Assembly (NCBI GenBank): GCA_029288865.1
Contig: JARIGM010000035.1
Coordinates: forward strand, 26,258-90,257
From: Candidatus Kaiserbacteria bacterium
GTDB taxonomy: Bacteria > Patescibacteriota > Minisyncoccia > Phycocordibacterales > Phycocordibacteraceae
Reading direction: 5' to 3'
DNA: 64,000 bases
The translations under genes were made by a program, and so were the position numbers. The notes under the pieces are model-generated. The model was not told the DNA's origin, made no database searches, and saw only the letters and a list, made by a program, of their open reading frames with translations. Each line of letters opens with the position of its first letter. Within the stretch, counting starts at the first letter, position 1. Positions 16,899 through 30,610 of the stretch are shown here, in pieces.

Positions 16899-17960
16899 TT
16901 AAGAATCGAGGGTTTGTACCTGCTTATAAATGATGCGCGATATCTCCGCGATATTAGTTTCAAGGCCCTTAATGTCGTCACCAGTCCCCTCAGTCATGAT
17001 ACATAACAAGTAGGGATGCGCTGGATAATACACAATTCCACAGTTGTGTATCTCTTTACCCACTGTCGTATTGTTATTGTCTACCAGCCTGACTTCTCCA
17101 AACTTCTGTGCCACCACCACCCCATTCGGAACACCGCTGTCTATCCCTTCGGTAAAATCACTTTCGGAAAGCAGCTGCAGTGCCCGCTCTGAATCTGATC
17201 GACTTAGATACGTCGCGTTGTACAGAGCACGAAGGAATATAGAGTAATCAGAAACAGTAATAGTATCTTTGTATTGGACTGCGACGCTCGGATCAATGCC
17301 GAGATCGTTGAAGGTCGCAACGTATGCATCAATATTATTTGTATCAGTGAGGTTTTGGGCCAGAAGTTGTACGGCATTGTTGTCAGAAAAACGAATCATA
17401 TGTTCGATTAATTCTTCGACTGTATATTGCTTGCCTGGAACTAGCTGAATGGATGATTTGATCTCCTCAACGCTGTCGGTGTCCATCGTTCCTTTATAGG
17501 TAATCAATCTCGTTAAGATGGCAGGATCGGACTCTGATATTTTGTAATAGGTCATCATCAGCGGCACTTTGTTTAAGCTCGCCGGTGTATACAGCTCTTT
17601 TGGATTGATGACAAATCCGCCGGGTCTATTAATATCTCGGAAATCGACGGATGCTCTCACAAGGCCGTTCTTCTTTTGGCTGTCTATATACGTCTGAACA
17701 GCATCTTTCATACTGCTGTATTGTTGCGCATCGTCAACACCTTTAATTCCAATGAGCGGATCTATGAACTTATAACCCAAATTAGTCTTTGAAAGACTGC
17801 TCTCGCGTAATGCTGTAACTTTTGACAATGCAGCTGGGGTTAGTGCAAAAAAGACGATCATACCCGAGACTAGGGCGCCCACGACAAAAGACCCAAATGC
17901 AACAATAATAAGTTTCTGTTTGCCATTCAATTTGGTGTCCGGCAACGCGACTTTTTTCAT
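16899..17960 (-). CDS. membrane-anchored serine hydrolase, class A beta-lactamase / PBP fold
   Basis: N-terminal TM helix; SxxK (ASLNK), SDN (RFSDNNA) and KTG-like (KFG) motifs in the canonical order. Encoded in an AT-rich stretch; terminator at 16854-16880. Confidence 0.6.
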   Translation of the reverse strand: MKKVALPDTKLNGKQKLIIVAFGSFVVGALVSGMIVFFALTPAALSKVTALRESSLSKTNLGYKFIDPLIGIKGVDDAQQYSSMKDAVQTYIDSQKKNGLVRASVDFRDINRPGGFVINPKELYTPASLNKVPLMMTYYKISESDPAILTRLITYKGTMDTDSVEEIKSSIQLVPGKQYTVEELIEHMIRFSDNNAVQLLAQNLTDTNNIDAYVATFNDLGIDPSVAVQYKDTITVSDYSIFLRALYNATYLSRSDSERALQLLSESDFTEGIDSGVPNGVVVAQKFGEVRLVDNNNTTVGKEIHNCGIVYYPAHPYLLCIMTEGTGDDIKGLETNIAEISRIIYKQVQTLDS

Positions 17961-19967: not shown

Positions 19968-20471
19968 CTATGCCCGATCAACGTCAGGATTGTTATGCAG
20001 GTTCAGTCTCGTCACGACGTCAGAAGGAGCTTTGGCCAACAGCCGTTTCGCAACAGCCAGGATATCGGGGAATTCTTCTGCATTGTGTGTTGATTCTGTG
20101 ATGTTCACACACCAGCGTTTAATCTCGATACGAACGCCTCCGAAATTCCACGTCTCTTCCCAAGCTCCACGTGTAAAGCAAATATAGGCAACCAATTCCG
20201 GGCCACGGTTGCGCCCTTGAGGCATGTTTGGATCATCGCTCATCGCAAACGGCGTCGTCTCGATTTTGACCAGACGCAAGTCCATATTATCCGGAATGGG
20301 ATTGTGCCCAGGTTGTAGAATTTCTTCTTTAGTCCAGAGACGGTATTTCCGGAAATACACTCGTTCTCCCCGCACGTGTTCGAGATACATATGAAGAATC
20401 TCAAGCGCAGTAGATCCAGTGTTGCCCAAGTCTACTTTCGGCAAACGAACCCAATCCAATTTACTGAACAT
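19968..20471 (-). CDS. hypothetical protein (cassette gene C, 167 aa)
   Basis: Start at MFSKLDW, preceded by a GAGGGG RBS. No recognised family. Own promoter-like region and a 5' leader inverted repeat. Confidence 0.5.
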   Translation of the reverse strand: MFSKLDWVRLPKVDLGNTGSTALEILHMYLEHVRGERVYFRKYRLWTKEEILQPGHNPIPDNMDLRLVKIETTPFAMSDDPNMPQGRNRGPELVAYICFTRGAWEETWNFGGVRIEIKRWCVNITESTHNAEEFPDILAVAKRLLAKAPSDVVTRLNLHNNPDVDRA

Positions 20472-20525
20472 TTCAATTACCCCTCTCGGGTAATGCCGTA
20501 CGGAATTGTACAAGCAACTGTCATC

Positions 20526-20573
20526 TCGACAGTCTTTTAGTGGCAAAGCGGATTGTCAGTAAAAGACTGTCGA
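20526..20573 (-). promoter_or_regulatory. perfect 14-bp inverted repeat (tcgacagtctttta / taaaagactgtcga) with 20-nt spacer in the 5' leader of cassette gene C
   Basis: The arms are exact reverse complements. The element sits 55-100 nt upstream of the gene C start, between the putative promoter and the RBS. Confidence 0.55.
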
Positions 20574-20666
20574 GAAAGGTTGCCTGGCTCTACTGGGGTA
20601 TACACTAAATATGCTTCTCAGCAGCTGAGTTGAATCCAAGTATTATATACAACACTATTATATAAA

Positions 20667-20694
20667 AGTAAAGTGCTCCGCTGGCTGGAGGATG
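20667..20694 (-). repeat. inter-cassette direct repeat copy R2
   Basis: gctccgctggctggaggatgttcgaacg, followed on the minus strand by a promoter-like TTTACT-17-TATATA. Confidence 0.75.
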
Positions 20695-20711
20695 TTCGAA
20701 CGTGTATGTAA

Positions 20712-20745
20712 AAAGAAAAACCCGTCAGCCTTGCGACTGACGGGG
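20712..20745 (-). terminator. intrinsic terminator downstream of cassette gene B
   Basis: cccgtcag ccttgcga ctgacggg hairpin with a flanking A/T run. Confidence 0.6.
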
Positions 20746-20774
20746 AGTTGTCTGAGCAGCCCGAGCTGTGAACT

Positions 20775-21080
20775 TCAGGCGGGGATGCCCATGCGCGGGT
20801 CAACCCTCTCGAGGATCGGGTCGTCGTCGGAGATGAACGACCGCTCGGGGATCTCGGACGCGAAGAGCTTCTTCGCGGCGGCGATGCCCATGAGAGTAAT
20901 GATGGCGACGATCTGGTCGTGCTCCTCGTGATCGAAGATCTTGATCACGGTCCAGGACTGGCGGTCCCGACCCGGCATCCGATCGAATTGCTGCCCGATC
21001 TTGGGCGAGTCTTCGTTGCTGACCTGCACCAGCTCGATCTTGTTCTCGAACTTGGCCAGAAGGAAGATGCTGCGGTTCAT
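20775..21080 (-). CDS. hypothetical protein (cassette gene B, 101 aa)
   Basis: AAAGGA RBS; a near-consensus sigma70 promoter immediately upstream; no recognised family. Confidence 0.5.
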   Translation of the reverse strand: MNRSIFLLAKFENKIELVQVSNEDSPKIGQQFDRMPGRDRQSWTVIKIFDHEEHDQIVAIITLMGIAAAKKLFASEIPERSFISDDDPILERVDPRMGIPA

Positions 21081-21132
21081 GATGGTATCCTTTCTTGAAA
21101 AGCCAGGATTCTGGCGATGGAACTTCCGTATC

Positions 21133-21161
21133 TATATTAGCACGTATCATGATTTATGTCA
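21133..21161 (-). promoter_or_regulatory. near-consensus sigma70 promoter (TTGACA-17-TAATAT) driving cassette gene B
   Basis: Minus-strand reading is agcTTGACAtaaatcatgatacgtgcTAATATagatacgg. The -35 hexamer abuts repeat copy R3 directly. Confidence 0.65.
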
Positions 21162-21189
21162 AGCTCCACTGGCTAGAGGATGTTCGAAC
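21162..21189 (-). repeat. inter-cassette direct repeat copy R3
   Basis: gctccactggctagaggatgttcgaacg. Confidence 0.75.
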
Positions 21190-21213
21190 GATACTGATAG
21201 GAAATAAGTAAAG

Positions 21214-21247
21214 AAAAAACCCGTCCTTCATGGAAAAGCGGGTTTTT
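21214..21247 (-). terminator. intrinsic terminator downstream of the NADAR gene
   Basis: aaaaacccg tccttcatggaaaag cgggttttt. Confidence 0.7.
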
Positions 21248-21264
21248 AAATACAGTTAATATGA

Positions 21265-21729
21265 CTACCGAAGCGGTGGTAATTTGTCCCGGATCTCCAT
21301 GAGAATCCGACAAAATAACTCCGCCGGTAGGGATGTATCAGGAGACTCGGGTCCGACGTCATGATACAACTCTAGTCCTGTTGTCGCGTGTAACGCTTTT
21401 CTGGCCATATCGTTCTGGGCAAACTTCGCGTTAATCGCGATAGCTATGAGCATGCGATGCTGGTCGCTTCCATAAGGATCCGAGCGTCCATCCCACCAAA
21501 TCCGCTTTCGTTCTGCGAAGGTGCCATATTCTTTTGCTCGTTTTCCCCACGATAGGAATGCTTCTTTTCGTCTGGCGTCATCCTCAGGAAATTTTATTCC
21601 CTGAATGAATCCCTCTGCCGACGCACAGAATTCATTGCCAATCTTAAAAGGGATACAAGGAAAGTTACTAAGGATGTGTGCTCGCCAATCGGTCGAGCCA
21701 CTGGTTACATTGATTCGTTCTACTGTCAT
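21265..21729 (-). CDS. NADAR domain protein (YbiA-like, DUF1768; a family reported to act on ADP-ribose linkages)
   Basis: ILSNFPCIPFKIGNEFCASAEGFIQGIKF…GPESPDTSLPAELFCRILMEIRDKL matches the NADAR pattern (FSNF…F…EH.FQA.KF…N.LG..LM..R..L). GGAGG RBS. Confidence 0.65.
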   Translation of the reverse strand: MTVERINVTSGSTDWRAHILSNFPCIPFKIGNEFCASAEGFIQGIKFPEDDARRKEAFLSWGKRAKEYGTFAERKRIWWDGRSDPYGSDQHRMLIAIAINAKFAQNDMARKALHATTGLELYHDVGPESPDTSLPAELFCRILMEIRDKLPPLR

Positions 21730-21820
21730 GAGAACCTCCTATTCTAGCCGGACTATATCACCAATGAGAAAAAATTGATATTTCAAGAATGTGATCTCTT
21801 TTTGGAACCGGAGCGTTTTC

Positions 21821-21844
21821 CTCTTTTCTCCAATGCTCCGTGGG
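21821..21844 (-). repeat. truncated half-copy (R0) of the cassette repeat between tRNA-Asn and the first cassette
   Basis: ctcttttctccaatgctccgtggg matches the left part of R1 (ctcttccctttttgaatgctccactgg) but lacks the ctagaggaggttcgaacg half. Confidence 0.5.
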
Positions 21845-21882
21845 TAAGCAAAGCTTGCCCGCCGTCGCCTCGCTCGAATACA

Positions 21883-21908
21883 AAAGACCCCTAGGAAGGG
21901 GTCTTTTG
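21883..21908 (-). terminator. terminator hairpin immediately 3' of tRNA-Asn
   Basis: aaaagacccct agga aggggtctttt, followed by a T-run on the minus strand. Confidence 0.65.
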
Positions 21909-21922
21909 TATTGCTCACTCGG

Positions 21923-21994
21923 CTCCGCGGGTAGGATTCGAACCTACGACCAACTCGTTAACAGCGAGCCGCTCTACCACTGAGCTACCGCGGA
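21923..21994 (-). tRNA. tRNA-Asn (anticodon GTT)
   Basis: Minus-strand cloverleaf folded by hand: acceptor TCCGCGG/CCGCGGA, D-arm GCTC AGTGGTA GAGC, anticodon stem-loop GCTCG CTGTTAA CGAGT (GTT), T-arm GTAGG TTCGAAT CCTAC, discriminator G. Confidence 0.85.
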
Positions 21995-22118
21995 ATATCT
22001 GCACCGCCCTTCACTGCCCTCTTGCAGGCGGAATGGGCGGTCCGGGCACGTAACCCGGACGTTTATCATTCTAGCGGAAATTCCAAGTTCAGCAACTACC
22101 TATCCCGGGTAAATAGAA

Positions 22119-22146
22119 AGGCCGAGAGAGCATACTCTCTCGGCCT
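22119..22146 (-). terminator. intrinsic terminator after the HTH gene
   Basis: ggccgagagag cata ctctctcggcc, a perfect hairpin followed by a T-run on the minus strand. Confidence 0.65.
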
Positions 22147-22167
22147 TTGGTGTCACATCGGGAAGGA

Positions 22168-22527
22168 TTAGGGTTTGCGACGATCTGTGGTCGGAATATG
22201 TTCAGAGTAGGTTCCTGTCGCGAGTTCATCCTGTTGGAGCTGTGCTCCAGCGTGTACGATCGCGACCCGGAAGCCGACTGCCCTCGCAAGCTTGAATGCC
22301 GTCAGAAGAGCAGGACGTTTGGTGTCGCGCCAGGCAAACTTCACAACAGTAGTTGTGCAGAGTCCGGCTTCGGCTGCGATGATCTCGAAGTTCCTATTGC
22401 GCTTATTGTGCGCATGCCATACGGCGCCCCGCAAATCATCCAACCACTTTTCGTAATCGTAATCGATGGTATGGACAGGAACCGCTGGTACTTCCTTTCC
22501 CACGACTTTTAAATGAACTGATGCCAA
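22168..22527 (-). CDS. putative HTH DNA-binding regulator (TTG start)
   Basis: AAAGGAGG RBS 6 nt before the TTG. Helix-turn-helix-like segment EIIAAEAGLCTTTVVKFAWRD; divergent from ORF 22684. Confidence 0.45.
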   Translation of the reverse strand: MASVHLKVVGKEVPAVPVHTIDYDYEKWLDDLRGAVWHAHNKRNRNFEIIAAEAGLCTTTVVKFAWRDTKRPALLTAFKLARAVGFRVAIVHAGAQLQQDELATGTYSEHIPTTDRRKP

Positions 22528-22683
22528 GACGTTCCTCCTTTGATGGATCTTGTCTCTACTAAATTAGAACACATCAATACTAATGTCAATTAAAATGTAA
22601 GCTTTTCTCACATGCTAAAATCGAACATATGCCGCGCGCAGGGACGCCCCCCATCCGCTCGAAGCAAGTATAGTCTCCATGAT

Positions 22684-23199
22684 ATGAGAAAGAAAATTGT
22701 TACCGTGAACGACCGAATGCAGCACGATTACAAGTACGAACTTATCGAAGAGCCGGGCAAGAATTTCCATCCTGAATTCAAGCCGGATCTGACACCGAAA
22801 GAGATGCTCGCGCTTGGCGTGTTCGGTGGTGTGTATATGCGCGATTGCACGAAGGAATTCCCGGCCGATTGGTTCACGCATGCCAAATTCCAGGTGAAAG
22901 ATTCGTACGTGCACGATCCGAAGATCAACTTCTTTAAGGTAAACGCGAGCCAGCCGCTTTCAGTGTGGAAGAAGAAAGGCTGGATTCATAAAGACGATCC
23001 GCGCGGATGGTTCCAATGGTATTGCCGCTACTACATGGGCCGTCGCAGCGAGGATGACGAGCGACAGATCAAGCGATGGAAAGCGATCCGCCGTCATGCA
23101 TACCAGATACGGTATAACTGCAAACCCGGCGACATGACCTGCCGTCCGGTCCAGCGCCAAGCTTTGCTACACTGGGCATACGATAGCCGCGGGATGTAG
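22684..23199 (+). CDS. conserved hypothetical protein (Trp-rich; GWFQWYCRYYMGRR motif)
   Basis: 172-aa ORF with conserved-looking aromatic motifs that I cannot assign to a named family. Start uncertain (22612 TTG / 22684 ATG / 22717). Confidence 0.4.
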   Translation: MRKKIVTVNDRMQHDYKYELIEEPGKNFHPEFKPDLTPKEMLALGVFGGVYMRDCTKEFPADWFTHAKFQVKDSYVHDPKINFFKVNASQPLSVWKKKGWIHKDDPRGWFQWYCRYYMGRRSEDDERQIKRWKAIRRHAYQIRYNCKPGDMTCRPVQRQALLHWAYDSRGM

Positions 23200-23290
23200 A
23201 ACTTCTCGCAACAAGTGACAATATACTTGCGCATATGGCATAATCGCAGCGGACGCAATTATTCAGCACATCATCATATGGAGAGTCGCC

Positions 23291-23653
23291 GTGAATCCCT
23301 CACGACTTTTATCGCCGTCCCGCGGACGCATTACTGCGGGACCGAGCACGTTGGAGCTCCTCGCATCCTTATCCAAATACAATACCCCGGAGGCAGTTGA
23401 ACACGCAGTAGATATTGTGTGTGCGTTCAACAACCGAGAAGAGACGCTTCGGGTCCAAGTGGTGGCATTAATTCATCGTCCCAACCCGCCCGAACAATGG
23501 GACATCGGCGGATACACTGTAAGCTCCCTTCCGAGTCATGAACCCCGAGCACTCACGGCAACCTATAATGCTTTGGATCGCCGAGGCGCAATGAAATTCT
23601 TGGAAGCTGATTTCGCCGGTTTTGATATTGAAGCGTTGCATTCAAGATACTGA
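23291..23653 (+). CDS. hypothetical protein (GTG start)
   Basis: GGAGAG RBS 6 nt upstream of the GTG; terminator at 23694-23719. Confidence 0.35.
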   Translation: MNPSRLLSPSRGRITAGPSTLELLASLSKYNTPEAVEHAVDIVCAFNNREETLRVQVVALIHRPNPPEQWDIGGYTVSSLPSHEPRALTATYNALDRRGAMKFLEADFAGFDIEALHSRY

Positions 23654-26360: not shown

Positions 26361-29300
26361 ATGCCCAGCAGATTGTCTTATTTCGGAACAGCGCCGCTTC
26401 TCATCGCGCTGTTTGCAAGCAGTGCGCTCTTAATTTTCCCTTCGCTCTCGCAAGCTGAGACGGGAGCCACGCTCGGCCAATACGCCATCAAATCAGTATC
26501 AGCGCAGCAATACATGGCGCTGCAATACGGCGTGTCGCGTGTCGACAACCAGGTCGTTGATTACTTCGGCGATGGGACGAATCCGTTCCAACAATTTTCT
26601 GTTGTGCGAATGGGAAGCACCCAGTATGAATTGCGCGACAAGCCGAACGGCCTCTGCCTTACCGCAACTACAGCTGGCATCGTGCAAGAGAATTGCACCG
26701 GGAGCAACAATCAGCTCTTTATCTTGAACAAGCAGTCGGACGGTTCATATCAGATCGGCAATGGAAACAAGTGCGTAGTAGTCCCTTCGACGTTCGCAAG
26801 CGTCGTAACAGGTGATTGTAGTTCAAACGCCTCATGGACGTTCGTTCCAGAGAACGGCAGCGCGAGCTTAAACCTATCAGCATCGAATACGACTTCAAGC
26901 TCAGTATCTGTTTCTTCTTCAGGTACTCCGACTCCGACAAGCACGGATGTGGCTCCGAGCTCAAGCAGCATAGCTCCAGGACAATATGCCCTTAAATCCG
27001 TACCGTTCCAGCAATATATGGCGCTTGCCTATGGAGCATCGCATACGGATTATCCAGTGGTGGATTACTTCGGCGATGGTACGAATCCGTTCCAGCAGTT
27101 CGTACTCACAGACATGGGTTCCGGCCAATTCGAACTTAAGGAGAAGACAGGCGGACTCTGCGTAAGCATAACCAGCAATGGAGTACTTCAAGAGAATTGC
27201 ACCGGCGCAGGCACGCAACTGTATTCGCTCACTAAACAATCGGATGGTTCATATCAGATCAAGAATACTGCTTCGGGAAATTGCCTCACAGTCCCTTCAA
27301 CATTTTCAAATGTTACGGCTGGATCGTGTGACGCAAATGCTGATTGGTTTCTGTTGAGTCGAAACGGATCAGTGACAACTCCTTCCACAACTCCCGTCGC
27401 TTCAACTCCCGCCGCAACGACGCCGACATTCAAGTCTGGCGATCGCGTGATGACAACTGACTCGGTGAACGTGCGTGCAGCTGTCTCAACTGTTGGACAG
27501 ATTCTCGCAAAAGAAGCACGCGGAAAGACCGGCACTGTTACTGATGGTCCTTCTCAATCCAATTCGTATACCTGGTGGAATATCGCCTATGATGACGGCG
27601 CTGCGGGATGGAGCGTTGAGTCTTATCTGGCCGCAACTACGATTCAGAAACCTGCTCCTGTTACTCCTGTCACCGTTCCTGCACCCGTGACCCAACCTTC
27701 CTCGAGTGAGACTCCAGTCACGCAGCCAACGACGCCGACATTCAAGTCTGGCGATCGCGTGATGACTACTGATTCAGTAAATGTGCGAGACGGCGCATCC
27801 GCGCAGAGCGCAATTCGTGGCAAAGCGCTAAAGAACGCAACCGGAACCGTTACTACCGGACCAGTACAATCAGGTAGCTATAAGTGGTGGAAGATCGACT
27901 ATGACAACGGACTGAGTGGCTGGAGCGCCGAATCTTATCTCACAGCAACCACGATTCAGAAGCCGGTGACGACCCCTTCAACACCGACGACGCCAGTAAC
28001 TACCCCATCGAGCTCCACTGATTCATCGCAGAGCGTAACGACTGTAGTCCCAAAAAACTTCCGTCTCATGACACTCGGCGACTCGATGACACAAGGATAT
28101 GGTGGAGCTGATGTCGGAGGATATCGCGGCCCCCTCTATCAGGCACTGCTTTCAGCGGGCTATGCTCCCCAGATGGTCGGTACCATCTCGTGCGGCACCT
28201 CAAGTCTCTTGCCTGCAAACCAGCAAAATTGTGACGGAGTCGGCGGCAACACCCTTGCTCAGATCGATGCTCGCGTAAAGACCGGCATCGTCACGACAAA
28301 TAATCCGGACGTCGTACTGATTCTCGGCGGATTCAATTCGATCTATTACACCTACGACTCGACCCAGACGGATCTCGATAATCTCCAGCAGATCATCGAA
28401 GACGTGCACGCGCAGAAGCCAAGCGTTCATATCATCGTCTCTTCACTCGTGGGAAGCACCCAGTGCTGCAACACGAATAAGATTGCGGAGTACAACGCTG
28501 GCATCCCGGGCGTCGTAGCGAAGCTGAAGGCTCAGGGTTATGCGATCACCTACGTCGACATGTATCCGGTCGTGCCAAGCAATGACCTCTACGATTACGT
28601 GCATCCGAACAGCGATGGCTACCGCCTCATGGCAGCAACATGGCTGAACGCGATTAAGGCGATCGTGCCGCTCACAACGACCACATCGGTGAATACAACA
28701 TCGTCATCATCATCGACGATCGCCTCAGCGTCATCGTCTAAGAATCTCGACTTGACCGGCTATAAGCTCACATTCGATGATGAGTTTAATAAGCTCGACA
28801 TCTCCGATTCCACGACTTACGACGGATCGAATTGGTACACGCACAACGAGCAGTGTTGCATGATGACCACCGATGGTTCTGGCACGGCGATGGTCGGCCT
28901 CTCAAGTCCGCAGAATCCGTATTCGATTCTCCCCGGCGGAGGACTGAATATACGATTACAGAAAACTAATAACACCTGGACATCAGGTGTTATTACGTCT
29001 GTCGACAATTCGGGCAAAGGATTCTCGCAAAAGTACGGCTACTTCGAGATGAAGGCCAAACTTCCTGCCGGCACTGACACCTGGCCAGCTTTCTGGCTTT
29101 TGAATACTGCCGCCAAAAGCAGTAATGCGCCTGCAGGAGAGGCTGATATCGTCGAATACATCGCAAACCCGGGCTTCCGGAATTATATCGTCTCCACACT
29201 CCATGATTGGAGCAATGGAACTACCCCATCGGAGAACCACGTCCCGGTCTCATCGGTCCCCAGCGATGGGAACTATCACACGTACGGTATGAAGTGGACT

Positions 29301-29480
29301 CCTGATACGATCACCTTCTACTACGATGGAGTCCAGACAGCTCAGACCTCGACACCTACAATCATGCACCAGCCATACTATATGCTCGCAGACCTTGGAA
29401 TCGGTGCTGGTTGGCCGACGGATAAGACCCCATCAACTAACGACATGCAGATCCAATACATCCGTGCGTATTCCAACTAG
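26361..29480 (+). CDS. secreted multidomain cell-wall-active enzyme: 2x ricin-B lectin, 2x SH3b, SGNH/GDSL hydrolase, GH16 beta-glucanase
   Basis: Signal peptide. Two beta-trefoil lectin repeats (QYMAL…NGLCLTATT…QENCTG…). Two SH3b copies (FKSGDRVMTTDSVNVR…WW(N/K)I(A/D)YD…GW). GDS motif (LGDSMTQGYGG) and DxxH (DYVHPNSDGY). GH16 catalytic ExDxxE (GEADIVE). Confidence 0.75.
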   Translation: MPSRLSYFGTAPLLIALFASSALLIFPSLSQAETGATLGQYAIKSVSAQQYMALQYGVSRVDNQVVDYFGDGTNPFQQFSVVRMGSTQYELRDKPNGLCLTATTAGIVQENCTGSNNQLFILNKQSDGSYQIGNGNKCVVVPSTFASVVTGDCSSNASWTFVPENGSASLNLSASNTTSSSVSVSSSGTPTPTSTDVAPSSSSIAPGQYALKSVPFQQYMALAYGASHTDYPVVDYFGDGTNPFQQFVLTDMGSGQFELKEKTGGLCVSITSNGVLQENCTGAGTQLYSLTKQSDGSYQIKNTASGNCLTVPSTFSNVTAGSCDANADWFLLSRNGSVTTPSTTPVASTPAATTPTFKSGDRVMTTDSVNVRAAVSTVGQILAKEARGKTGTVTDGPSQSNSYTWWNIAYDDGAAGWSVESYLAATTIQKPAPVTPVTVPAPVTQPSSSETPVTQPTTPTFKSGDRVMTTDSVNVRDGASAQSAIRGKALKNATGTVTTGPVQSGSYKWWKIDYDNGLSGWSAESYLTATTIQKPVTTPSTPTTPVTTPSSSTDSSQSVTTVVPKNFRLMTLGDSMTQGYGGADVGGYRGPLYQALLSAGYAPQMVGTISCGTSSLLPANQQNCDGVGGNTLAQIDARVKTGIVTTNNPDVVLILGGFNSIYYTYDSTQTDLDNLQQIIEDVHAQKPSVHIIVSSLVGSTQCCNTNKIAEYNAGIPGVVAKLKAQGYAITYVDMYPVVPSNDLYDYVHPNSDGYRLMAATWLNAIKAIVPLTTTTSVNTTSSSSSTIASASSSKNLDLTGYKLTFDDEFNKLDISDSTTYDGSNWYTHNEQCCMMTTDGSGTAMVGLSSPQNPYSILPGGGLNIRLQKTNNTWTSGVITSVDNSGKGFSQKYGYFEMKAKLPAGTDTWPAFWLLNTAAKSSNAPAGEADIVEYIANPGFRNYIVSTLHDWSNGTTPSENHVPVSSVPSDGNYHTYGMKWTPDTITFYYDGVQTAQTSTPTIMHQPYYMLADLGIGAGWPTDKTPSTNDMQIQYIRAYSN
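27417..27787 (+). repeat. intragenic duplication of SH3b-encoding segment (near-identical about 59-nt cores at 27417-27475 and 27729-27787)
   Basis: acgacgccgacattcaagtctggcgatcgcgtgatgac… is repeated almost exactly. Confidence 0.7.
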
Positions 29481-29553
29481 TCCGTGACACTATAGATACG
29501 GTGTTGTATTCTGAATCGGGCCTGTTTTTGCTCTTCACCATGAAAGGAACCGC

Positions 29554-30078
29554 ATGGAGACGCACGGAATCTACCTGTACCATATGGTGCCGGACAACCT
29601 GAGGGGCGACACCTTGTATCCTCTCAATCTACTTCAAAAGACGTATCCCGCCGAATATGAAGCCGCGAAACGGAGATATGTTGGTCGTGAGCATCTGCTG
29701 ACCCAACGTATCGCAGCACTTGATTGCTTCTGGGGTGACGTATTGTTCTTAACGCCGTGTCATCCGGCACGCATTGCCAAGGCATTTCAGGAAATAGGCC
29801 TCGAGCTCGATGCCGCGTTCTATGAGATCGACGCTACAAAGCTCGCCCCTGATAAGGCAGCGATCTGGCTGGGAGTTGGAGATCCGAATGACCTAGCTAC
29901 TTATGTGGCATATAAGCCTGAGACTCTTAAGCAATACGATCTGGTAACAAGGCAAACCTCGGTCAGATACCGACAAGCGAAGGAAGCCGGACACAAACCC
30001 TACCTCTTTGAGGACGCGCCACACGTGCTTTATCGCGGTCCTATTGAAGTACCTTCCCGTACGATCGTTCTCTCCTAA
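29554..30078 (+). CDS. hypothetical protein with weak DarT/DUF4433-like N-terminal motif (possible ADP-ribosyltransferase)
   Basis: GIYLYHMVPDNLRGDTL is close to the DarT N-terminal motif IYHITHIDNLKGIL, and GDVLFLTPCHP is close to DYVPFYFCPRSP, both recalled from memory. An acidic FED lies near the C-terminus. Terminator at 30092-30124. Confidence 0.45.
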   Translation: METHGIYLYHMVPDNLRGDTLYPLNLLQKTYPAEYEAAKRRYVGREHLLTQRIAALDCFWGDVLFLTPCHPARIAKAFQEIGLELDAAFYEIDATKLAPDKAAIWLGVGDPNDLATYVAYKPETLKQYDLVTRQTSVRYRQAKEAGHKPYLFEDAPHVLYRGPIEVPSRTIVLS

Positions 30079-30124
30079 ATCCGATCGCCTGAAAACGCGC
30101 AGTCCTTCGGACTGCGCGTTTTCT

Positions 30125-30610
30125 TTATTCAGTATCGAGTGATTTGCGGCGGAACTGGCTCACATTCTGCAGCACGAACATCACGAGCCCGAGCGAGCCG
30201 ATAATCTCGATAAGGAGCAGTCCGCGACCAGCGATCGTTGCAGGTAGGTTGATCGGATTGAACACGAACACCAGGACACTTGTGAGCATGAGACTTATCG
30301 GGTCAAGCGAGAGATCGGGGAAGCTTGCTGGCTGAGCCAAACACAGGAACCAGTATTGAAACGCAAAGAACACCAAGAACTCCAGAATCACAAGCGAAAG
30401 TATCATGAACATGTTCATGCTTCCCTTCACTTCCTCCACAGCCTCTGTCGCGACAAAGATCGTTACAATAATTCCTGCAATGGACGCTGCAAGGATCACC
30501 CCTTCGGCGACCGCCACAGGCGTATGGGTGAATATCAGCAGGCTTTCCGCCACTATCAAAGCAGCAGTTCCGAGAAGCGAATGTGAAAGCTTAAATTTTC
30601 GACGTTTCAT
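30125..30610 (-). CDS. hypothetical membrane protein (4-5 TM)
   Basis: Hydrophobic helices throughout; no family assigned. Confidence 0.45.
   Translation of the reverse strand: MKRRKFKLSHSLLGTAALIVAESLLIFTHTPVAVAEGVILAASIAGIIVTIFVATEAVEEVKGSMNMFMILSLVILEFLVFFAFQYWFLCLAQPASFPDLSLDPISLMLTSVLVFVFNPINLPATIAGRGLLLIEIIGSLGLVMFVLQNVSQFRRKSLDTE

Follow-up and report, generated by a model that had tools for sequence, protein, structure and literature searches.

ADP-ribosyltransferases (ARTs) are among the main tools of microbes in conflict and signalling. One of them is DarT, the toxin of DarTG systems, which ADP-ribosylates thymidine or guanosine in ssDNA and is, to our knowledge, the first enzyme shown to modify DNA bases reversibly in this way. 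The subject of this report is a gene in a 64,000-nucleotide stretch of DNA from a Candidatus Kaiserbacteria bacterium (contig JARIGM010000035.1, positions 26,258 to 90,257; hereafter the window, with all coordinates counted from its first letter). This gene, at 29554..30078 (+), codes for a stand-alone protein of 174 aa with a predicted ART fold, from a family that has no curated model. In DarT both R51 and E160 are needed for activity, according to a review (PMC9967889). Tpt1 and CC0527 are ARTs that lack the catalytic Glu and carry an H-H-h motif; CC0527 is a small stand-alone protein of unknown function with a sporadic distribution (PMC8120803). Arr, which modifies rifamycins, is a small, stand-alone, non-toxic ART with a small-molecule target and an H-Y-D triad (PMC8120803). 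By analogy, these three may serve as precedents for ARTs that are Glu-less or that stand alone without being toxic.

A first-pass annotation, made from the DNA sequence, had read the gene as a possible orphan toxin of the DarT (DUF4433) type. The open reading frame (ORF) itself is as described there: the coordinates, the strand, the length of 174 aa, the start and the internal peptide GDVLFLTPCHP were all confirmed. The product has the N-terminus METHGIYLYHMVPDNLRGDTLYP and contains, besides GDVLFLTPCHP, the peptide LFEDAPH. The analysis below indicates that the protein very probably belongs to a new family within the ART superfamily, so far without a curated model, which is structurally closest to DarT and is not DarT.

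Predicted fold, protein family and relation to DarT

A structure was predicted with AlphaFold2 from an alignment of 112 family members (A2), which is also the basis of the conservation figures given here for the family. The result was a single-domain model with a mean predicted local distance difference test (pLDDT) score of 95.5 and a predicted template modelling (TM) score of 0.89. The predicted model has the split beta-sheet core fold of the ART superfamily, with a DarT-like architecture. The top three matches in Foldseek were DarT entries, with weak statistics (E 0.12-0.24, best TM 0.53). Further structural neighbours were, in ranked order, OspC3 (7.1), SopF (6.4), E. coli DarT1 (6.3), CC0527/DUF952 (6.1), CopC (5.7) and Tpt1 (5.4). 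Below them rank many toxins of the cholera, pertussis and diphtheria types, as well as PARPs, Arr and RES toxins. Of the top 60 structural matches, nearly all belong to the ART superfamily; those to Tpt1 cover only ~70 residues and score lower than those to DarT. On these rankings the modelled protein is of the ART fold with DarT as its nearest solved structural relative, and the likeness to DarT suggested in the first-pass annotation holds at the level of the fold.

The only statistically strong Foldseek match was the BFVD entry UPI00054A7A15, a viral protein of 200 aa (E 6e-6, TM 0.50, 17% identity), which may be DarT-like or may represent a related family in viruses.

The 174-aa protein had no match at E<=10 in Pfam (including PF14487 and all ART-clan models), NCBIfam or PADLOC, and none at E<=0.01 in PHROGs. 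The PDB sequences returned nothing with either the single protein or the family profile, and none of the 112 members of A2 matched any ART-clan Pfam family. Only two relatives, with 34-40% identity, were found by a word-indexed homology search. An exhaustive HMMER scan of 1.84 billion cluster representatives resulted in 773 homologous representatives at E<=1e-3, of which 513 remained at E<=1e-10. Nearly all family members are 165-185 aa long, match from end to end and stand alone; where their sources name them, they are called 'hypothetical protein'. No description of the family was found in the searchable literature or in the family libraries of 2025-2026.

The family is accessory and patchy: one peptide pattern gave 182 tblastn-confirmed matches in 185,579 species genomes. 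We fetched 80 homologous loci from named genomes, in a locus search seeded with 20 sequences. More than half of the hosts (44) are bacteria of the Candidate Phyla Radiation (CPR, or Patescibacteria). The others are DPANN archaea (6), Thermoleophilia/Actinomycetes (6), Ignavibacteria (5), Pseudomonadota (3), Cyanobacteria (2), other groups (4) and unclassified organisms (10). The best relative of the window copy is 42% identical, whereas the MurA protein of the window has relatives at 90-94%. The nearest sequenced relatives therefore probably lack the gene, subject to the reservation that their assemblies may be incomplete. An origin from a phage or another mobile element was considered and rejected: there are no family relatives on IMG/VR viral contigs or in PHROGs, and the base composition is not anomalous.

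Two genomes hold the gene twice. In a Buchananbacteria genome the two copies (L058 and L060) lie ~41.5 kb apart on contig CAIOLF010000046.1, and the coordinates of their flanking ORFs are identical, which points to a segmental duplication of large size or to an artefact of assembly. Two further copies (L030 and L077) are in the same metagenome-assembled genome of Thermoleophilia.

Four residues, H10, Y42, R45 and P71, are invariant in the alignment (112 of 112). Conservation of at least 90% is seen at Y9 (97%), G18, L21, P23, L24, L27, P32, K41 (96%), L56, C58, W60, D62, P156, H157 and G162. A conserved segment, G/N61-D62-V-L-[F/H]-L...P71, surrounds the second strand. D62 is the sole universally acidic position of the whole protein (100% D/E), and position 65, in beta2, is His or Phe (His in 53% of members). 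Near the C-terminus lies the motif P156-H157-[IV]-L-Y-[KR]-G, with His at position 157 in 107 sequences and Gln in the remaining five. As read from the alignment, this pattern is typical of an active site.

The match to DarT had been proposed on three landmarks. Two of them are conserved in the family, namely Y9-H10 (97% and 100%) and G/N61-D62...P71. The third, a late 'FED' that was taken to hold the catalytic Glu, is not: its columns E153 and D154 are acidic in only 4% and 3% of the 112 homologues. No position within residues 100-174 is more than 69% acidic, and the C-terminal third has no conserved Glu. The FED was consequently rejected as the catalytic site on grounds of conservation.

For the comparison with genuine DarT, a rough bait led to the true N-terminus of the Thermus sp. 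2.9 protein from the PDB, and a scan of viral contigs then resulted in 14 loci with full-length DarT genes. One of these encodes a protein with 100% identity to the crystallised one in the fragment that was matched. Thermus sp. 2.9 DarT has the sequence IYHITHIDNLKGIL...HDYVPFYFCPRSPM, and the DarT motifs quoted in the first-pass annotation, IYHITHIDNLKGIL and DYVPFYFCPRSP, were accurate. In the recovered protein with 100% identity, H13, R51, Y71, M78, H119 and E160 are at the active-site positions of the literature. Across 11 full-length DarT proteins the invariant residues are H13, R51, V68-P-F-Y71, P74-R-S, M78 and E160.

Genuine DarT fragments do match PF14487. This model was matched neither by the window protein (E<=10) nor by any of the 112 homologues (E<=1), and hhalign of the family alignment against 13 full-length DarT sequences gave a probability of 0.5% (E 0.13). 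The membership in DUF4433/DarT that had been proposed for the protein is not borne out by these comparisons. Half-domain alignments (N- or C-terminal) and global or local hhalign runs against DarT were also tried; since they were insignificant and mutually inconsistent, they were not used for the mapping of residues.

In both the family and DarT the Y-H pair stands at the same place in beta1, a long helical insert with an invariant Arg lies between beta1 and beta2, a conserved Asp precedes beta2, a Pro-initiated helix follows it, and the size up to beta6 is similar. In contrast, there is no detectable similarity between them in sequence or profile, and the family lacks the invariant E160 of DarT, its nicotinamide-stacking Y71 (PFYF), its PRSPM with M78 and its HxT, in which H13 binds the adenosine ribose. 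Family beta2 reads V-L-[H/F]-L-x-x-[VI]-H-P, and neither within this strand nor after it is a Tyr or Met invariant. The helix that directly follows beta1 in DarT is missing from the family, as are the C-terminal helix and strand of DarT (~32 aa). The family further differs in its hosts, which are mainly CPR and DPANN, and in having no DarG partner (macro or NADAR) in the examined loci.

Among the DarT sequences, one protein of 121 aa that matches PF14487 (P0203) has the N-terminal motif region (IYHITH...HDYVP) joined directly to the catalytic region of the C-terminus (RRRQAEFLV...). It is an internally deleted DarT or an artefact of gene calling.

Candidate active site and proposed chemistry

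Residues of the family were set against those of DarT by the order of secondary-structure elements, and DarT was represented by a model of its N-terminal fragment (pLDDT 76). In that fragment model beta1, with His as its fourth residue, is followed by helices, one of which has R51 at its end, by a short strand, a 3-10 turn ending in D66, beta2, a Pro-initiated helix and beta3. The family model shows the same order: H10, R45 after the helix 32-42, D62 ending a 3-10 turn, beta2 (63-67), P71 opening the helix 71-80, and beta3 (88-93). The spacings in the family and in DarT, the latter read from the sequence, are similar: 20 and 20 residues between beta2 and beta3, 8 and 9 between beta3 and beta4, and 18 and 19 from beta5 to the end of beta6.

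From this order we infer that H10 may correspond to H13 of DarT, R45 to R51, D62 to D66 and P71 to P77. The invariant His10 (codon CAT, 29581..29583, +) is the fourth residue of beta1 and is the proposed NAD+-anchoring His. Arg45 (codon CGT, 29686..29688, +) belongs to the K41-Y42-x-G-R45 motif, within the helical insert that separates beta1 from beta2, and is a possible counterpart of R51. Asp62 (codon GAC, 29737..29739, +) closes the sequence W60-N/G61-D62 at the end of the 3-10 turn before beta2, and D66 of DarT is predicted in the same context. His157 (codon CAC, 30022..30024, +), the first residue of the penultimate strand, is proposed to take the place of the catalytic Glu of ARTs, which in DarT is found in A-E160-F-L-V. 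This last equivalence, drawn from strand order and the spacing between strands, is the least secure.

Our reading is that the protein is a cytoplasmic, active, non-toxic, NAD+-dependent mono-ADP-ribosyltransferase with H10 as anchor, with R45, with H157 or Gln in the place of Glu, and with a small molecule or a phosphate or hydroxyl group as acceptor; the chances that this is correct seem to us about even. In such an enzyme NAD+ would lie in the cleft between beta1 and beta2, where H10 would be placed at the adenosine ribose and His/Phe65 would stack against the nicotinamide. R45 would help to polarise NAD+, the role that R51 has in DarT. In place of the canonical Glu, H157 or Gln would either form a hydrogen bond to the 2''-OH of the nicotinamide ribose or act as a general base. 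A single ADP-ribose would then pass to a harmless acceptor; a small molecule or a phosphate or hydroxyl group is the likeliest, rather than thymidine in genomic DNA. This choice of acceptor is suggested by the occurrence of the family as a lone gene in minimal CPR and DPANN genomes, never with a reversing hydrolase, and with a small-molecule methyltransferase of the TehB-like kind as its sole recurrent partner.

The link to this S-adenosylmethionine (SAM) methyltransferase was observed both as fusion and as adjacency. There are fusions of two architectures, one with the ART-like domain ahead of the methyltransferase (P0004) and one with the reverse order (P0021), and one further fusion is with a SnoaL-like domain; the proteins that carry a methyltransferase or SnoaL fusion are P0004, P0021 and P0027. 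In five loci (L016, L024, L028, L031 and L034) a methyltransferase of the P0021 type also directly adjoins the ART-like gene on the same strand, the gap being -37 to +47 bp. These methyltransferases are distantly TehB-like and their nearest solved relatives are uncharacterised. They are the only recurrent functional link of the family, and this context resembles small-molecule modification more than nucleic-acid conflict.

Several points weigh against the proposed activity. The residues were equated by secondary-structure order only, and every sequence-profile alignment was insignificant; one of these insignificant hhalign paths sets E160 of DarT opposite the hydrophobic position 150. Under either placement of E160 the aligned family is without a catalytic Glu. 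The HX[S/T] motif, which usually contacts the adenosine ribose, is absent, position 12 (two residues after H10) being Val (71%) and not Thr. We know of no active ART with His at the third position of the triad, and the family could be dead or could use a different chemistry. The methyltransferase link is present in only ~7% of loci and is missing from the window. The choice of a small molecule as acceptor is guesswork based on context, and both activity and NAD+ binding are predictions.

Some of these points also favour the possibility that the family has a catalytically inactive or repurposed ART fold, serving as a sensor of NAD+, ADP-ribose or a nucleotide, or as a pseudo-enzyme scaffold. 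The missing HX[S/T] would fit this, as would the fact that 96% of members lack a canonical Glu, Asp or Gln at the third position. However, the tight cluster of H10, K41, Y42, R45, C58, D62 and H157 fits catalysis better than a scaffold, and the family is repeatedly fused to, or coupled in an operon with, an enzyme (the SAM methyltransferase), which points to a step of metabolism. We consider an inactive fold rather unlikely.

A somewhat smaller probability falls to a chemistry like that of Tpt1/KptA, that is, an NAD+-dependent ADP-ribosylation of a phosphate monoester that needs no catalytic Glu. Here K41 and R45 would bind the phosphate, and the target would be a 5'- or 2'-phosphate of RNA or DNA or a phosphorylated metabolite. 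The family shares with Tpt1/KptA and CC0527 a Glu-less ART fold with a beta1 His. This His, together with the frequent His at position 65, recalls the H-H-h motif of Tpt1 and CC0527 (PMC8120803), and two basic residues, the invariant R45 and the nearly invariant K41, are at hand. In contrast to this likeness, the family has no Pfam match to PTS_2-RNA or DUF952, and the Tpt1 matches in the structure search are short and rank below DarT. Tyr (97%) precedes the beta1 His of the family, instead of the Arg in the R-H-R-R tetrad of Tpt1, and the single-domain model has no N-terminal winged-helix lobe for RNA binding. Unlike Tpt1 and CC0527, the family proteins are larger, carry a DarT-like helical insert and, where the third position is presumed to be, conserve a His instead of a hydrophobic residue. 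The median isoelectric point of the family (6.6) is untypical of a nucleic-acid binder; as a discriminator of DNA binding in general, net charge and isoelectric point proved uninformative.

Other ARTs are more distant. Arr has no antitoxin, is non-toxic and acts on a small molecule, and is thus a functional precedent for the role proposed here; however, the family has no sequence match to Arr, and a different catalytic triad in place of H-Y-D, and the comparison with Arr models and structures did not make it an Arr. The arginine ADP-riboxanases OspC3 and CopC, together with SopF, are large secreted effectors of pathogens that depend on host cofactors (calmodulin, ARF). The family has no sequence similarity to them and no secretion signal.

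An even less probable, speculative version would make the family a sister lineage of DarT that ADP-ribosylates nucleic acids by means of the R45/H157 pair and has no dedicated eraser. The product would be a non-lethal regulatory or protective mark in ultra-small episymbionts, namely CPR bacteria and DPANN archaea, and the gene would have been exchanged between these two domains.

Gene neighbourhoods and the NADAR gene of the window

The first-pass annotation had further noted that the gene has no adjacent DarG macrodomain or NADAR antitoxin, and that a NADAR gene lies 8 kb upstream, which it saw as a possible split arrangement of toxin and reversal enzyme. We found no macro, NADAR or ADP-ribosylglycohydrolase (ARH) protein among the neighbours of the ART-like gene in the window, in agreement with the first of these statements. 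The identification of the NADAR gene also stands, at the level of the superfamily. The ORF at 21265-21729 (-), of 154 aa, matches the T4 gp30.3 family PF08010 with 55.7 bits (cut-off 36), as well as phrog_652; PF08719 (NADAR) and the NCBIfam models gave no match to it. The gp30.3 protein, now called AdfN, is a NADAR-type ADP-ribosylglycohydrolase of phage that neutralises DarT1 (PMC11257639).

This NADAR ORF adjoins a tRNA-Asn gene (21921-21994, -) and several ORFans without a Pfam match (19968-23653). Its GC content at third codon positions is 0.47, compared with ~0.6 in its neighbours, which suggests an integrated or horizontally acquired cassette.

To look at the homologous loci, ORFs were called in them and the three neighbours on either side were clustered by blastp, for ~77 non-redundant loci. 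No conserved neighbour was found among these genes. The largest cluster, of 6 loci, is a methyltransferase, sometimes with a GNAT domain, and the second is a NUDIX hydrolase in 5 loci, which we treated as coincidental and not as a partner. A Pfam scan of the 139 immediate neighbours showed 6 SAM methyltransferases, 4 small kinases and pairs of NUDIX, GNAT, SnoaL, APH and other domains; macro, NADAR and ADP-ribosylglycohydrolase were absent from the top Pfam families. With median intergenic gaps of ~70 bp, a small antitoxin ORF could not be hidden between the genes. In a jackhmmer search of all ORFs of 82 family loci (±6 kb) with the NADAR protein of the window and the ARH of locus L007, only the queries themselves were recovered. 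The homologue P0006 is found among housekeeping genes, with aminoacyl-tRNA synthetase genes on one side and dnaJ on the other, and is alone on its strand; nothing relevant (no NADAR or ARH) lies within ±10 kb. These negative results hold for flanks of 6-10 kb, which could miss a gene 8 kb away, and not for genome-wide co-occurrence.

A single ADP-ribose-related neighbour was seen. In L007 (1585-2577, +, and 2615-3082, -, of that locus) the homologue P0002, which is 40% identical, is two genes from an ARH gene (PF03747) and beside Prok-JAB and PatA_N genes. This arrangement was seen in no other locus and is probably coincidental.

We examined how much is left for an orphan toxin of the DarT type that ADP-ribosylates DNA bases and is held in check by the AdfN/gp30.3-like NADAR protein. 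The DarT structures are the closest structural neighbours, the beta1 His and the invariant Arg are in DarT-like positions, the upstream ORF is a genuine gp30.3/AdfN-type NADAR gene, and the L007 homologue has its ARH two genes off. On the other side, neither PF14487 nor the PADLOC DarT models are matched and the hhalign probability against real DarT is negligible. The catalytic Glu has no counterpart, the FED is unconserved, and the Tyr71 of PFYF, the M78 and the PRSP motif are absent. No hydrolase recurs near the ~80 homologues. In the window the NADAR gene and the ART-like gene are 7.8 kb apart, with at least nine unrelated genes on both strands between them, and this pairing was seen in no other family locus examined. 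The gene also persists alone in reduced genomes, and a lethal DNA toxin as a lone gene in hundreds of minimal-genome lineages is implausible. Together, these results make an orphan DNA toxin very unlikely, and neither this idea nor the split arrangement is supported.

The ART-like gene looks like an independent transcription unit. A 73-bp gap separates it from the upstream gene and holds a promoter-like site, GTGACA-17-TATTCT (29484..29512, +), which scored 9/12 in a consensus scan and is a pattern match only, promoters of CPR bacteria being unvalidated. The gene has its own Shine-Dalgarno-like sequence, AAAGGAA (29543..29549, +), 4 nt 5' of the ATG, as read from the sequence. Downstream, the terminator scan and the sequence indicate an intrinsic-terminator hairpin (30091..30123, no strand assigned) with a 15-bp stem, 9 G-C pairs and a T-run, common to the ART-like gene and a convergent membrane-protein gene at 30125-30610 (-). 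The GC content of the ORF is 0.518, which is within one standard deviation of the window mean (0.533 ± 0.039). The alternative of a chance ORF or a decayed pseudogene with coincidental DarT-like motifs, as the lack of curated matches and the yield of the word-indexed search might suggest, has virtually no probability and is refuted by the 773 homologues, the full-length alignment with its invariant residues and the confident AlphaFold2 model, which together with the Shine-Dalgarno sequence, the promoter-like site and the terminator mark the ORF as a real gene.

The window itself is ordinary chromosomal DNA of a bacterium of the Patescibacteria (CPR). Its MurA shares 76-83% identity with proteins from genomes named as Paceibacterota, Parcubacteria or Patescibacteria group, and other genes code for a major facilitator superfamily transporter, a class A beta-lactamase-like protein, a GH130 protein and a flavin adenine dinucleotide oxidase. 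Directly upstream of the ART-like gene is that of a 1039-aa secreted protein (26361-29480, +) with a signal peptide-like N-terminus, two ricin-B lectin domains, SH3 domains, a GDSL lipase/esterase domain and a C-terminal GH16 domain. This multidomain protein could be an enzyme with which an episymbiotic CPR bacterium attacks the surface of its host. Besides the convergent membrane protein, further neighbours are a cold-shock protein, an SRPBCC protein, a phosphoribosyltransferase and a DUF892 protein. The beta-lactamase-family gene (16899-17960, -; PF13354, E 3e-30) has a GC content of 0.436 against 0.533 for the window and was likely acquired horizontally.

Meaning for ART diversity and for CPR and DPANN genomes

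What is new here is a predicted ART fold with DarT-like architecture and a non-canonical H...R...H constellation, encoded by a stand-alone gene in a family that is centred on CPR and DPANN. The finding is purely computational and is of interest for specialists in ADP-ribosylation and in the annotation of CPR and DPANN genomes. Even if the protein were inactive or its function mundane, the result would correct a tempting misannotation as an 'orphan DarT toxin'. If it is active, a Glu-less family with a conserved His and hundreds of members would extend the known catalytic repertoire of the superfamily. A stand-alone relative that is free of an antitoxin would also help to show how toxic and non-toxic ARTs diverged. 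The genomes of CPR and DPANN organisms are tiny and largely unannotated, and the family is therefore a tractable candidate for the function of a 'dark matter' gene that is shared across two domains.

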